DNA of 64,000 nucleotides from Eledone cirrhosa (lineage: Eukaryota): contig OZ024743.1 in assembly GCA_964016885.1 (NCBI GenBank), positions 16,802,001 to 16,866,000 on the forward strand. The letters run 5' to 3'. The notes beneath the pieces were generated by a model, which ran no database searches, was not told where the DNA came from, and saw only the letters and a list, made by a program, of their open reading frames with translations. Position 1 is the stretch's first letter. The number at the start of each line of letters is the position of its first letter. Below are positions 1,273-63,398 of this stretch, in pieces. A program made the translations under genes and the position numbers.

Positions 1273-1458
1273 GGGCGGTGGATTGGCAGTATTGGTAGAG
1301 GGTCGGACGCCATGCTTTGACGTATAGAGTTACGGCCCTTGCCATTCCGAGTTCAAATCCCGCCGAGGTTGACTCTGCCTTTCATCCTTACGGGTCGATA
1401 AAATAAAGTACCAGTAATGCACTGGGTATTTGCTGACCTTGTGCCTAACGTAGAAACA
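1273..1458 (+). mobile_element. tRNA-derived SINE, copy 1 (cephalopod-type; central region resembles the Meta/MESC SINE domain)
   Basis: A box TGGCAGTATTGG, B box GAGTTCAAATCC, core GCCTTTCATCCTT..GGGTCGATAAAATAAAGTACCAG. Two further copies in the window. Imperfect target duplication ATTATTGTATATAT / ATTATTTGTACATAT. Confidence 0.9.
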
Positions 1459-4368
1459 ATTATTTGTACATATCAGCATTCGGAAGAAATCAACCCACAC
1501 AACGCGTCTTCGTAATAAGAATTTAGGGATAACATGAGAGAGAATGTGTAACTTTATTTTAATTTTGCTGTTTTTTTTTTTTTTAGAAAGCATTCATACA
1601 CGTGATGAGACAAATTACAAATATTCCTTCAAAGACATGATATTCCCTCGAGTTACTTTGCTAATATAACAATATAAAAAGAGACCTATGTTTTCCTAAC
1701 ATTATGTTCCTTTTTATTAATCAAAGTAAATAAAGCAAAAGACATTTGTATAACACATTGGAACCTATTCAGATTTCGTGTGATACATAATCGTCACACT
1801 CATCAATATACACCTTTGTGTGTATATATTATAACTGGTATTGTTTCAATATGAATTTGGTATGCATGCAAGTGTTATTCGCACAGACCAATTTAATGAA
1901 ATGTACTTGAATGTTATTGACGCAAAATTGCATAAAACGAAGTAATAACATTGGCATTATACGTTAAAGATAACCAACATGTTTAAATCCTATGACATCT
2001 TCAAAATCAACGCAGCAATATTACAGTCTTAAAAGGCAAATACACCTCAGGATCAAAGAGCTAAAACATTCCATTACACTGTTTCTCTAAAAAGACAGCG
2101 TCAAATTATTCACTTTATTCTAATATTATGTGAACAATCTTTCCACACTCTTTGCAATGATGAAACATAAAACTCTTCACAACGTAAACGTCAAACCAAT
2201 TGAAAATAGATACTATAACATTTCGTCCACGAAACAAAAGTCCATACATCAAGAAACATAGGAATTAAACAAATGTACGCACAAATCTATATTAAGCTAC
2301 GTGTAACAATACTGTAAAATTGCAATATTCTTGGAATAAGGTATACCCTCAATTGAATGTGTATCCCTTCCAGTGTTACCAGCCAGTGTACAATTTCAAA
2401 CATCTAAAATATGCTTGTTTGTACTCCATAATGTATACACCCATATAATTCCTATAATCTATGCTCATATGTAGGTCATTTATCAGGAGCATTATACACG
2501 TGCTTATCACAGAGAATAAAATATGGATACATCAACAACATATATCATGTTTGCCTAATTATAACTAAAATGCGCTCAACGCATCTTCTCGTTATCCACT
2601 TATACAAAATCCTTAAATAATTTGAGGAGTATTAACAGGTGTAACGGTGTGGAGATTGTAGAGAAGGTAAGACTTCCTGAATTATTTATATCATAGCAGG
2701 ATTCATTACACGATTCTACTTGTTTGAACATATATACACATAATATTATACACAGTATATTTGGGATGAATATATTTGGGATGAATATATTTTGTATTAG
2801 CCTAGTAATTCGAGTGATGGTAAGCATGCCAGATATTTGCCCATTCAGCACAAACATAGAGTAAGACGCCCCAAAAGATAGATGCAATGAACCATCACTC
2901 AAGTGCATTACATAAGGTACATGAACAGGGTAATATATTTAGTTAAGTGAAATAGTGATTTTTAGCACAGGTACCATTCGATACATTTGGTGGATGATGA
3001 TTGAGTTGATTAGATCATGAATAAGACAGCTAATATCTGAATTACGTAAACCTATATTATGAAGTTTGATTACCATTTGTTTAAAAGCAGACTATTAGGG
3101 TATCAAAGAACTATTGAATGCAGCTACCATTTAATATAATTCTATATAACATTTATTTAGTTGAAAGGGGTAAATAAACTTGAATGTTGCAGCCATTGTA
3201 TTTAAGAATATGTTATAAAGACAATGGAGTGAAATAAGATACATTAGTGACAACATTCGGAAAACAATGTAAGCAAAGATGTAATGCCTGGAGTGACATT
3301 GCTTACATAGATCTCTCCATATTTACTGAAATTATTAAATATATAGAAGCATTATAACAGCGATTATGAATTAGTTCACTCTATATATTAATATTGAATT
3401 GGCATATAGAATTAAATAATCTAAAATATAATGCAAACGTGGAGTCAAACATATTGCGAATATAAAGTATTCAATAAAGTTAAACCAGTAATAAGATATA
3501 CTATCACGACAAAACACCTGATACATCAATTTTGAAAAGTATCACATGCATATTATACTTGTTACCAATTTGTAGTGTTATTGTTTTTCTTATTTTTGTT
3601 GTCCTCGTTTCTCTGCTTCTTCTTCCCATCATCTGTAACCCTTAATTTATGTTTTCTTTATTATGTAGATACTTTCAATTAGTTTTTAATATTCCATATT
3701 TTCTAGCATGAATGTGATGTGCCTGCTATTACATTTTTCTTCGAGCAGCATATATTATAGCCATAGCAAGTACTATCACATTTGTATGCCTATTATTTCC
3801 TTAACCTTTAAAATCAGAATATTCCTAAATATTAATGTCATGCTGAAATTATAAGACATTTTGATTTTTGCATGTGTTGTGTTTTGAATTCTTGATTATT
3901 TTTCAGCAATTATTACACTGTTGTTTGATTATTAACTCCGTTGCCTTATCTACTATATTAATAGATACTTTACTTCAGCTCCCATTGAAGATGTCTATGC
4001 ACCCGTTTCTCATTCGCATTTATTATAAACGAGTATTGCCTGTCCCAGTGCTCTAGCATTTATCATCTTTAACATACAAACTGATAGATGAATGTCACCC
4101 TATACCATCTCTATCCGGAAAGGTGTCTTCAAGGTGCAAGAACAGAATCATATATATATCATAACAGAAAATAAATAACTTTATTCAACAACATACCATT
4201 ATTTATATGTAGAACTATCATTACGTCTTATTCACCATGCAATACGTAAAGGGTATAGTGGGACAAGGTATTATAGTAAATAACTGGATGAATGAACTAA
4301 ATGGAATGAGGACAGCCTATACACAAAAGAAAGTACAATATCTTTTACAATACGTTTCTCTCTCTTAT

Positions 4369-4458
4369 CTCTCTCTCTCTCTCTCTCTCTCTCTCTCTCT
4401 CTCTCTCTCTCTCTCTCTCTCTCTCTCTCTCTCTCTCTCTCTCTTTCTCTCTCTCTCC
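4369..4458. repeat. (CT)n microsatellite
   Basis: Directly visible. Confidence 0.98.
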
Positions 4459-4650
4459 TTCTCCGTCACGTACAGGTGCCAAAGAGGTACACACACTTAT
4501 TTAAATGTATCTGAATGTTTATATATAAGGTACCCATATAAAATACATTATATATACTATGCAAAATGCGCGTAATAGGTCAATCCACGATGAAAATAGA
4601 ATTATATGAAAACGAATTATTGATTTTCTGAATATGTATATATGTATGTG

Positions 4651-60710: not shown

Positions 60711-60911
60711 AGGAACTAGGAGGACCCCGACGGCTCAGCTCAAGCCGTTCCGACGGCTAATTCTGGACTCCAGTCCAGAATTAGCCGTCGAAACGGCTTG
60801 AGCTCAGCCGTCGGGGTCCTACTCGTTCCTATTACCCACTCTACTACCCTAAGTATTGAGTACTTTGGTGCGTTATGGTCCACCTGGTTCCTTACCACAT
60901 TTCCTTCGTTA
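60711..60911 (+). mobile_element. 'TTCTGGAC' family pLTR remnant with fold-back, embedded in (TA)n
   Basis: 60711-60768 is the reverse complement of 60773-60831 (loop TCCA). GAAA(60790)-CGGCT tgagctc AGCCG-TC-GGGGTC. Confidence 0.85.
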
Positions 60912-61686
60912 TATATATATATATATATATATATATATATATATATAATGCTTCTTTTCTTTCATCTAATATTTCTCCATCTAGTTAAGTGGGACATAAA
61001 ATTCATCGTCACTATTGAGTATTATCTTTATTATTGCTATTAACTAAAATATCCGTTCCATCTTACTTGTATTTATTATTTATGGGTTATGTAAGTTATA
61101 TGTGATACGAACATATATGGAATTCTGTCATCAAATGTTTCATATATATAATGTAAATAAGATAAATCAAAGATTTAATCTCCCTCCCATCATGAGAAAT
61201 ACATAAAAAATAGTTTATCTTTCTCTTATTGTTATCGGTCTTCTTTCTGATCTCTGATTACTGCGTTTATACATTTCCCTGGCTCAACTTGTCATCTCAT
61301 TCCGCCACTTTTTCCATCACCTTCCTTATTATTGCGGGATTTCTAATTATTGTTATAGTTCCTCAGTTAGCTTATGTATATGGTGCAAGTGTGTATGACT
61401 ATTTGTCTTTACAATGTTATGCTAGTTGATATATTAACTCATTCATAATACGTTGTTCCACCAAATACTAGAGCCACATATAAACTTTAAATAGATGGTT
61501 GATTAATATAATCGATATTATATTTTTTATTCATTCATATACATATAGTTTCAAATATGTGATTAAAAGTATTTGTTAGAATAGTGAAACAATTTTAATA
61601 ATGAATAACATTAATTGGGATTATTTGCCTACAGCCGCATGCTCAGACTAGACCCTTTCACACGGGCCATTCTCGTCCCATTCACA

Positions 61687-63378
61687 CCCTCTTGTTCCCC
61701 TTATATGTACTGGCCCTCTAGCCGTTACTGCACAAATATGAGACGATGAGGGGGTGCCACGCGAACTGGGATGCGGGAGATCCGTGTCAGCTTACGCCGA
61801 CGACGTCAACGTGGTAGTGTCAAGCAGCAAACACGTCCAGATGTTCAGCACCGCTCTCAAGGAATACGAAGCGGTGACAGGAGCAAAGATAAACCAGGAA
61901 AGTTGGTGTGCTTGCAACACGGCACTTGGAGAGGCAAGACCATGCTGTTCGACAGCGTCGTGGGGCGCTGGACGGAAGGACAGGTTAAATTGGTCGGTGT
62001 CTGGTACGGTCCGGATCTCCAGATGGAGAAAAACTGGAGCGAGGTGACGAGCAGGCTGGCCTCTCTAACCCAGATATGGGCCGAGGAGAGGCTGTCTCCG
62101 AAAGGACGGGCGGAAGTGGCGAATCTGTACATAGCGTCCGTCATCTGCTACCGCCTAACTCTCGTACCTCGCCCCCGCCAAACTCTGACCAAAATGGAGC
62201 ACCATCTCTTCCACTGTTTGTGGAAGCGACGTGCTCCCATGGTCAGAAGATCCATTTGCTGTCAACACGCGTTGCGTGGAGACTAGGCCTATCGTGGCTG
62301 ATTATGCGCAATCATCCGGTGAGGTTGCGACATCTCTGGTGCATCCTTGACGGTGAACAGGTGTGGTCGCCGTTTGCCAGACGCGCTTTTCCCTAGGTCG
62401 TCTCCTTGACGGAGCTGCAGTCCTGGATCAGGTAAAGACCGAGGGATAGCGCTTGGAAGCTGGGATATCACCAAGTGGTCACCGCCCTCTACCAGCTGGA
62501 CACTAATATCGGTGGAACATCCACCTCGGCGTTCTATAGAAGGCTAGTGGAGGGAAAGAGCAACGATGTTCTCGGGGAGACCCTGGGCATCGAGACGCTC
62601 AGCTGTTCCCTCTCTTCAAGAGAACTCTCAGACCGGGGCCTATGGACAACTTCCAGGTTCCCTGGCCTGGTAGTGCCACCGGGAAGCGTTGCCTGTTTAG
62701 TATAAGCTCTACAGGCACCGAGGTGCTGTCAGCCGAGCCTGGCCGAGATGCGCGCACAGCGACGAAACCGTCCTGCACGCACTCGTTCAGTGCCCGAGGA
62801 TAGCTGACTTGTGGTCTATGTCTAATGGCTGCTGTCGCGTGTAGGACGGATCCGGTTATCGACTGAGTCCATTGTGCAGATAGCCCCGCCATTCTCCTTT
62901 AAAGATGAGGAAGGGCAGGTAGTTTTCATCTGCCTGGTGGCCATGGCGAAATAGATTGTGTGGTGGGCAAGGTTGAAAGGGTTGAAGACGGACACTTTCC
63001 TCTGCGGACAATCCCTGATTAACTTTTTCAAGTCTCACTTGAAGAAGAAAATCAGGGTGGAGAAGCAGGTGTTGAAAGGTGGGTGAAAGTGGCGAGTCTG
63101 CCTGCCATGAGTATATGCTTGTAGACTGAGGAGTGGGAACACTGAGAGAGGGCGCTTACCCTGGTGGTCAGGATGGACGTTGTCTTTTGTGTGGTTTATG
63201 CCACGAGTAACCCACGTAGGTTTCCCCCTTTTGGGGATTTTTTGTTGTTTGAAATTTTATTTCTATCCCGATTTCAATCTTGTTATAACGACGAAAAACC
63301 ACTTTATAACGGCCTGTACTGTTCTGTGCCCCCTCTAATGTTTTTCTTCATGTTAACCCTTGTGGCCAATAAAGAAAA
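61687..63378 (+). mobile_element. Older, diverged L1/Tx1-clade relative, 5'-truncated within RT
   Basis: PRELGCGRSVSAYADD, GVWYGPDLQ, PMVRRSICCQH match ORF2 of copy B, with many stops. Ends AATAAAGAAAAT(ATT)n. Confidence 0.9.
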
Positions 63379-63398
63379 TATTATTATTATTATTATAG

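Follow-up and report, generated by a model that had tools for sequence, protein, structure and literature searches.

Two ways in which a short interspersed element (SINE) can resemble the long interspersed element (LINE) that mobilises it have been described for relatives of L1, in different organisms. In crocodilians, SINEU is taken to be mobilised by the LINE Tx1-Mar from their shared target preference (Kojima 2015, PMC4494074); it has U1/U2 heads, poly(A), a Mariner target and no 3' sequence in common with any LINE. Shared 3' ends, with a hairpin, are known between ZmSINE2/3 and LINE1-1_ZM in maize and between SINEX-3_CR and L1-1_CR in Chlamydomonas; a count of 58 pairs includes just three SINEs whose tails are of the L1 clade, named from these two organisms (Ohshima 2013, PMC3747384). 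Among LINEs that insert into simple repeats, the Tx1 families Kibi, in (TC)n, and Koshi, in (TTC)n, and crocodilian Tx1 families in (TTCC)n/(TTTC)n are members of the L1 superfamily with an apurinic/apyrimidinic-type endonuclease (APE) and a fixed orientation (PMC4494074, PMC3812793), while Dong, of the R4/Dong type, targets TAA repeats, in a snail too, with a restriction-like endonuclease (RLE) (PMC3812793). Here we examine a 64,000-nucleotide stretch of the genome of the octopod Eledone cirrhosa (assembly GCA_964016885.1, contig OZ024743.1, positions 16,802,001 to 16,866,000; hereafter the window), in which a SINE, like SINEU, has the target preference of a Tx1-like LINE, but carries a tRNA-like head, lacks poly(A), has its tail in common with the LINE and targets ATTATT. 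We consider it reasonably probable that this SINE was mobilised by an ATTATT-targeting Tx1-like lineage, likely related to but older than the intact copy described below, by way of some 45 nt of tail that the two have in common.

Self-comparison and inspection of open reading frames (ORFs) and junctions show the window to be repeat-rich animal DNA, with three SINE copies, three full-length and one truncated APE-type LINE, and two LINE families in which a reverse transcriptase (RT) is encoded together with an RLE. SINE and Tx1-like copies share motifs anchored to the element end, a junction at |ATTATT and the same polarity; the SINEs lie between duplications of 15-18 bp, without poly(A) or extra ATT units. 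The SINE copies and their target site duplications (TSDs) are as follows.

1273..1458, + strand: SINE copy S1, 186 bp, laid out as tRNA-like head, central body and tail; A-box-like motif at 1284-1295, B box at 1351-1359, TAATG at 1415, CCTTGTG at 1437.
1258-1272 / 1459-1474, + strand: S1 TSD, imperfect over about 15 bp (an indel plus mismatches); without gaps, no more than the first 6 bp agree exactly.
19570..19756, + strand: SINE copy S2, 187 bp; A-box-like motif at 19581, B box at 19648.
19553-19569 / 19757-19773, + strand: S2 TSD, exact 17 bp, beginning ATTATTATT.
60477..60659, + strand: SINE copy S3, 183 bp.
60460-60477 / 60660-60677, + strand: S3 TSD, 17-18 bp exact, beginning ATTATT; the distal part is TA microsatellite.

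Each of the three is short, repeated, non-coding and bracketed by a TSD; A-box-like and B-box motifs occur in 3/3, and internal T4 and poly(A) are absent from all. Pairwise identities among the three copies are 173/192, 172/189 and 168/190 (88-91%), and an nhmmer profile built from them has exactly three matches in the window. A scan of genome contigs for the body motif in further copies returned one bacterial match, consistent with chance, and plasmids returned none. ARAGORN called no tRNA in the tRNA-like head, and Rfam gave no match for S2. Body and tail may resemble those of abundant octopus SINEs.

The earlier note held that all three TSDs begin with ATTATT on the SINE sense strand, and they do, in both the 5' and the 3' duplicate. 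Because the 5' duplicate also carries the hexamer, ATTATT belongs to the target DNA and is not just the SINE tail. The count of ATT units is equal on both sides in 3/3, with no extra units at the 3' junctions. Background occurrence of ATTATT is 63/55,104 positions; it lies within 19 nt upstream of 691/50,400 positions, a frequency which, cubed for three random sites, gives 2.6e-6. Since the insertion sites are isolated ATTATT motifs holding only 2-3 ATT units each, the bias is for the hexamer and not for microsatellite arrays. The implied bottom-strand nicks read AATAAT^A, ^G and ^A, and inspection of the flanks found no T stretch at -10 in 3/3. Published TSDs of RTE elements are mostly up to 13 bp, with a T stretch near -10, and those of L1-type elements 7-18 bp (PMC6007223); the SINE TSDs, at 15, 17 and 17-18 bp, exceed the former range and fall within the latter, with small n. 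Short palindromic repeats resembling miniature inverted-repeat transposable elements lie within (TA)n runs at 6500-6708, 17902-18377 and 60662-60950, one of them falling in the TA portion of the S3 3' duplication.

The candidate partner is represented by four copies.

23103..29089, - strand: Tx1-like copy A, 5987 bp and full length, flanked at either end by (ATT)n; ORF2 with frameshifts and stops.
44202..50222, - strand: Tx1-like copy B, 6021 bp and full length; a CCHC knuckle and a C-run frameshift in ORF1; 3' untranslated region (UTR) ending in the shared tail.
44452..47871, - strand: intact ORF2 of copy B, 1139 aa without a stop; APE endonuclease, RT (YADD) and C-terminal zinc motif.
50265..56302, - strand: Tx1-like copy C, 99.0% identical to B and head-to-tail with it; one stop in ORF2.
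61687..63379, + strand: Tx1-like copy D, 5'-truncated and frameshifted, of a second subfamily; shared tail followed by (ATT)5.

Identity of copy A with B and C is 95.5-95.8%, and that of D with B is 75%. The ORF2 of copy B matches PF03372, PF00078 and PF13966; its nearest solved protein is human L1 ORF2p (E 3e-50, with R2 at 4e-21), and the closest named relative of its RT region is a protein of the octopod Argonauta hians (71% identity over 91% of residues 430-880), which points to an octopod host. By these matches, ORF2 has the architecture of an L1-superfamily LINE, nearest to L1. We use 'Tx1-like' for architecture plus target preference, as distinct from a clade placed by RT tree: no labelled Tx1 reference is among the ORF2 matches, and an Atlas search with ORF2 gave no clade or taxon. 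ORF1 is broken in each copy; the motif C-x2-C-x4-H-x4-C is present in it and has no Pfam match, and a CCHC zinc knuckle in ORF1 is a feature of the Tx1 clade. Atlas look-alikes of ORF1 with zf-CCHC scored 0.83-0.89, a lead only; the knuckle region itself (47910-49340, -) has a weak Atlas likeness to ZCCHC3-type RNA-binding domains (score 0.83), likewise only a lead. ORF1 is frameshifted at C runs in B (49100-49340, -) and C (55069-55205, -), and one frameshift is common to the copies of RLE family A (below); these frameshifts could be genuine or homopolymer errors of the assembly.

On the sense strand, (ATT)n follows the 3' end of the Tx1-like copies in 4/4 and precedes the 5' end in 3/4, counts in which A-C lie within one array and B and C are possibly one event. 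The polarity is that of the SINE targets, which bears out a further statement of the earlier note. The 5' junction of copy D (61620-61693) contains an inverted 55-60 bp piece of an ORF2 end from a related subfamily, which scores 48 against a best of 33 in 200 shuffles and covers a stretch deleted in the body of D. A candidate TSD for D, from an isolated ATTATT at 61620 (9-18 nt before the rearranged 5' junction), was not counted: ATTATT occurs five times in 970 nt there, and its counterpart would have to be sought outside the window.

The 3' ends of the two kinds of element agree in a small set of motifs, whose positions were obtained by string search.

1437, 19735 and 60638, + strand: start of CCTTGTG in the three SINEs.
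63358 (+), 23124 (-), 44223 (-) and 50286 (-): start of CCTTGTG in the four Tx1-like ends.

The tail strings quoted in the earlier note are all present, with CCTTGTG in S2 at 19735 and not 19736, and the likeness extends to two ends that it did not quote (44223 and 50286, both -). In 7/7 ends CCTTGTG begins exactly 22 nt ahead of ATTATT, and TAATG stands 16-17 nt upstream of CCTTGTG in 7/7, a pattern found nowhere else in the window. Anchored at the end, the SINE tail matches the Tx1-like ends at 13-15/22 positions and the RLE ends at 4-8/22, over a 22-nt comparison that was picked after the match had been seen; the score is equalled at just 2/127,949 other positions. When the 211 positions followed by ATTATT are ranked, the three SINE and four Tx1-like ends come top (43-44) and the next best scores 30. 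An anchored, gapped comparison with the SINE tail gives 20-23 for Tx1-like ends and 0-6 for RLE ends, a level reached by 2/1500 random positions (known ends left in the draw) and by 0/800 shuffles each of A and D. Between B and D, the last 46 columns of the 3' UTR keep 36/45 positions as against 121/200 elsewhere (Fisher p 0.009, with a post hoc boundary). The effective sample is one SINE family, in three copies, and two Tx1-like subfamilies, and as judged from these alignments the tail match on its own is modest evidence; its weight comes from its coincidence with the independent match in target and polarity.

Folding of six of the seven tails (that of C being the same as that of A) gives the Tx1-like ends one hairpin, with a CUUGU loop closed by C-G and, at its base, UAAUG paired to the junction where the AUU repeats begin (z of -2.09 for A, -2.37 for B and -1.48 for D). 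In the SINEs, loop and closing pair are invariant, and neighbouring pairs are changed on both sides relative to the LINE in 3/4. This covariation was equalled by 9/500 shuffles and the pair count by 105/500, and related rows inflate covariation, as the tool itself warns. Recognition that is loop-specific and stem-general, as in zebrafish L2 (PMC4176376), would predict the pattern of the SINE and LINE tails seen here. Structural mimicry of the Tx1-like hairpin by the SINE tail is a lead only, and a long hairpin common to SINE and LINE was ruled out by folding.

The other LINEs of the window, with which the Tx1-like copies are interleaved, are of the R4/Dong-like type.

29117-30912, 35018-39531 and 39617-44168, + strand: RLE family A, RT+RLE, with sense-strand (AAT)n flanks.
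30990-34627 and 34663-34961, + strand: RLE family B, RT+RLE, with sense-strand (AAT)n flanks.
63397..64000, - strand: RLE family B fragment (63397-63891) and a family A 3' end (63909 onward), both lying within the ATT run that follows copy D.

The nearest proteins to both families are R2, and by sequence they match the TAA-targeting Dong type (PMC3812793). Their 3' junctions carry sense-strand (AAT/AAC)n in the six examined. Most lie in a 33-kb nest (23045-56378) in which LINEs alternate with (AAT/ATT)n runs, comprising at least eight LINE copies of three families in one (AAT)n tract, with the Tx1-like copies on one strand and both Dong-like families on the opposite one. Judging from these junctions, APE and RLE lineages have come to use one and the same repeat, in opposite orientations. 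Across the whole window, 12/12 (AAT/ATT)n runs of at least four units adjoin a LINE, so that the runs may be products of insertion. Within the nest, 34328-34996 is a tandem 334-bp repeat, in which a 5'-truncated RLE-B 3' end is inserted behind a longer copy with (AAT)11 between them. The motif TGACGGAGG is common to Tx1-like and RLE-A elements, which are not related; it stands in the 30 nt nearest the 5' end (29077(-), 50210(-), 56290(-), 35037(+) and 39636(+), with no other occurrence in the window), and is possibly a common internal promoter element. Outside the nest, 10700-12531 and 12994-14808 form an inverted pair (90.7% identity across 1.85 kb). The ORF at 13582-14040 bears a GIY-YIG-like motif, there is no Pfam match, and the pair looks Penelope-like.

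Among the LINEs of the window, only the Tx1-like lineage thus agrees with the SINE in its tail, in the register of the junction, in target polarity and, going by published ranges, in TSD length. The sequence-specific SINE/Tx1-like pair that the earlier note proposed is upheld to that extent, the Dong-like families failing the same comparison, and is qualified by the sample of three SINEs and by a tail match that is significant only when anchored at the end. Several observations weigh against it. The SINE copies (88-91%) look older than the full-length Tx1-like copies (95.5-99%), and no Tx1-like TSD is readable, since the copies are embedded in arrays. Over a length of 30 nt not picked in hindsight, and with an offset of +-1, a 7-nt run occurs at 36/127,846 positions and 14/25 invariant bases at 360/127,846, with one site reaching both counts; when the last 60 nt are aligned locally without an anchor, Tx1-like ends (14-17) cannot be told from RLE-B (13-18). 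The looser match is thus a 0.03-0.3% event per family, and in a genome with dozens of LINE families a single chance match is conceivable. SINE tails prefer other folds (z of -1.0, -0.6 and +0.4), the consensus fold is worth just -0.72 kcal/mol, and the stem has A-C mismatches in S1, S2 and copy D. In CORE and Ceph domains, CCTTGGG lies near the head of the SINE, not the tail. This heptamer is conserved in those domains (PMC5786205) and CCTTGTG occurs inside BivaV-SINE3 (PMC4824008), so Tx1 is not needed for the 7-mer to appear in a SINE; otherwise the motifs of our SINE had no SINE match in the published material covered (one of two files of PMC4824008, PMC5804259 and available full texts). 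The three L1-clade cases among 58 pairs also make for a low prior (PMC3747384).

These points bear unequally on the alternatives. It is possible, if unlikely, that the partner is a LINE from outside the window, of the RTE, CR1/L2 or I/Nimb groups, with an (ATT)n tail, the ATTATT bias arising from pairing of tail and target and the likeness to Tx1-like ends being chance or convergence. Such elements exist in octopus genomes, and the comparison covered the LINEs of the window; 47 LINE families are recently active in O. vulgaris, among them 13 RTE and 13 CR1 families (PMC13282606), known SINE/LINE pairs are mostly CR1/L2/RTE (PMC3747384), and tail repeats affect where TSDs start in RTE-related SINEs (PMC6007223). 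No RTE, CR1 or L2 fragment was found in the window beyond the known elements, apart from one match that extends copy D, with three window proteins and stored homologues as queries, which are poor probes for distant clades. Against an RTE in particular stand the SINE TSDs of 15-18 bp, longer than the RTE range, and the 3' microhomology of animal RTE elements, 1-2 bases (PMC6007223) as against 6-9 here; any partner of this kind has to accommodate SINE 3' junctions that lack surplus ATT units and a match in tail and polarity to Tx1-like that would be coincidental. A different possibility, which we regard as quite unlikely, keeps the Tx1-like ORF2p but lets it mobilise the SINE loosely, through the AUUAUU end alone, with CCTTGTG and TAATG as a neutral relic or chance and no recognition signal. 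The SINE tails lack the LINE hairpin, the stems are broken in 2/3 copies, and Tx1-Mar is taken to move SINEU without a shared tail (PMC4494074); the 22-nt register and the invariant loop, kept across the SINE and two LINE subfamilies that are 75% identical, argue instead for constraint.

That the R4/Dong-like elements themselves moved the SINE is very improbable, even though they occupy the same AAT/ATT duplex array, TAA repeats are the known target of Dong (PMC3812793) and Dong-R4 is active in O. vulgaris (PMC13282606). Their polarity is opposite at 6/6 3' junctions and their tails are unrelated, with the 4-8/22 anchored matches and anchored scores of 0-6 given above, so that both families of the window are contradicted. 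The earlier note had named ORF2 44452-47871, whose APE and RT are intact, and had proposed a comparison of ages; made within the window, this has the SINE copies looking older than A-C, and the ORF2 may not be that of the actual partner. The SINE tail matches D slightly better than the others (44 vs 43 and 23 vs 20), and because the SINEs are more diverged than A-C and have tails that fit D slightly better, an older subfamily, perhaps D-like, is the likelier partner.

The junction anatomy is observed, and from it we infer the biochemical steps that follow. A presumably tRNA-derived SINE would owe its final ~22-45 nt to the 3' end of a Tx1-like LINE of the L1 superfamily. RNA polymerase III would transcribe it from its internal boxes and run on into the ATTATT that lies downstream. 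The Tx1-like lineage's ORF2p may bind the tail at its CUUGU loop closed by C-G, much as loops are read in stringent L2, while its APE domain would nick the bottom strand at AATAAT^purine; the freed 3' end of the target could then pair with the AUUAUU of the RNA and prime reverse transcription, a second nick 15-18 nt off generating the duplication. A further, doubtful scenario is that an animal Tx1-like lineage may have swapped poly(A) priming for stringent recognition of a 45-nt hairpin, the base of which would pair with the AUU read-through into the lineage's own target, meeting the repeat of Dong from the opposite strand; a family of octopod tRNA SINEs may have captured its end sequence; and much of the octopod SINE expansion at ATTATT sites may have been driven by this partnership instead of by RTE or Dong. 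SINEs make up 11.6% of the O. vulgaris genome (PMC13282606).

Compared with the systems described at the outset, the Tx1-like LINE differs from Kibi, Koshi and the crocodilian families in its ATT target unit (PMC4494074, PMC3812793), and from Dong/R4, with which it shares the TAA/ATT target, in endonuclease, orientation and tail (PMC3812793). The SINE/LINE pairs of maize and Chlamydomonas are those of a plant and an alga, with longer and clearer homology, no described target specificity and, in Chlamydomonas, poly(A) ends (PMC3747384). OR1 and OR2 of octopus are tRNA-derived octopod SINEs, as the present one probably is, and are listed as CORE-SINEs, and no partner LINE is named for them in the available text of PMC4824008 and PMC4758252. 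The 2026 annotation of O. vulgaris has L1-Tx1, Dong-R4, RTE and CR1 active and, in the portions available, gives no partners or targets (PMC13282606); the accessible text of PMC9115989 does not mention Tx1. The full-text literature, as far as it was accessible, yielded neither a SINE/Tx1 pair from an octopod nor a Tx1 element that targets ATT; subscription papers, Repbase and Dfam fall outside that scope, and the families may be catalogued there. The statement in the earlier note that such a pair is undescribed holds for the literature covered, and is narrowed by the published case of a SINE that inherits a Tx1 target (SINEU/Tx1-Mar, PMC4494074). Tail sharing between SINE and LINE and target sharing with Tx1 were each known separately; what the comparison suggests is new is a tail-sharing Tx1-like pair in an octopod.

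With an intact ORF2, a short tail and a six-base target, RNA recognition and targeting become directly testable in this system. If real, a pair sharing both tail and target with a Tx1-like LINE in an animal would bear on the ancestry of stringent RNA recognition in the L1 superfamily. It would also give a partner to the abundant SINEs of octopods, which are mostly unclassified (893/900 recently active families in O. vulgaris; PMC13282606).

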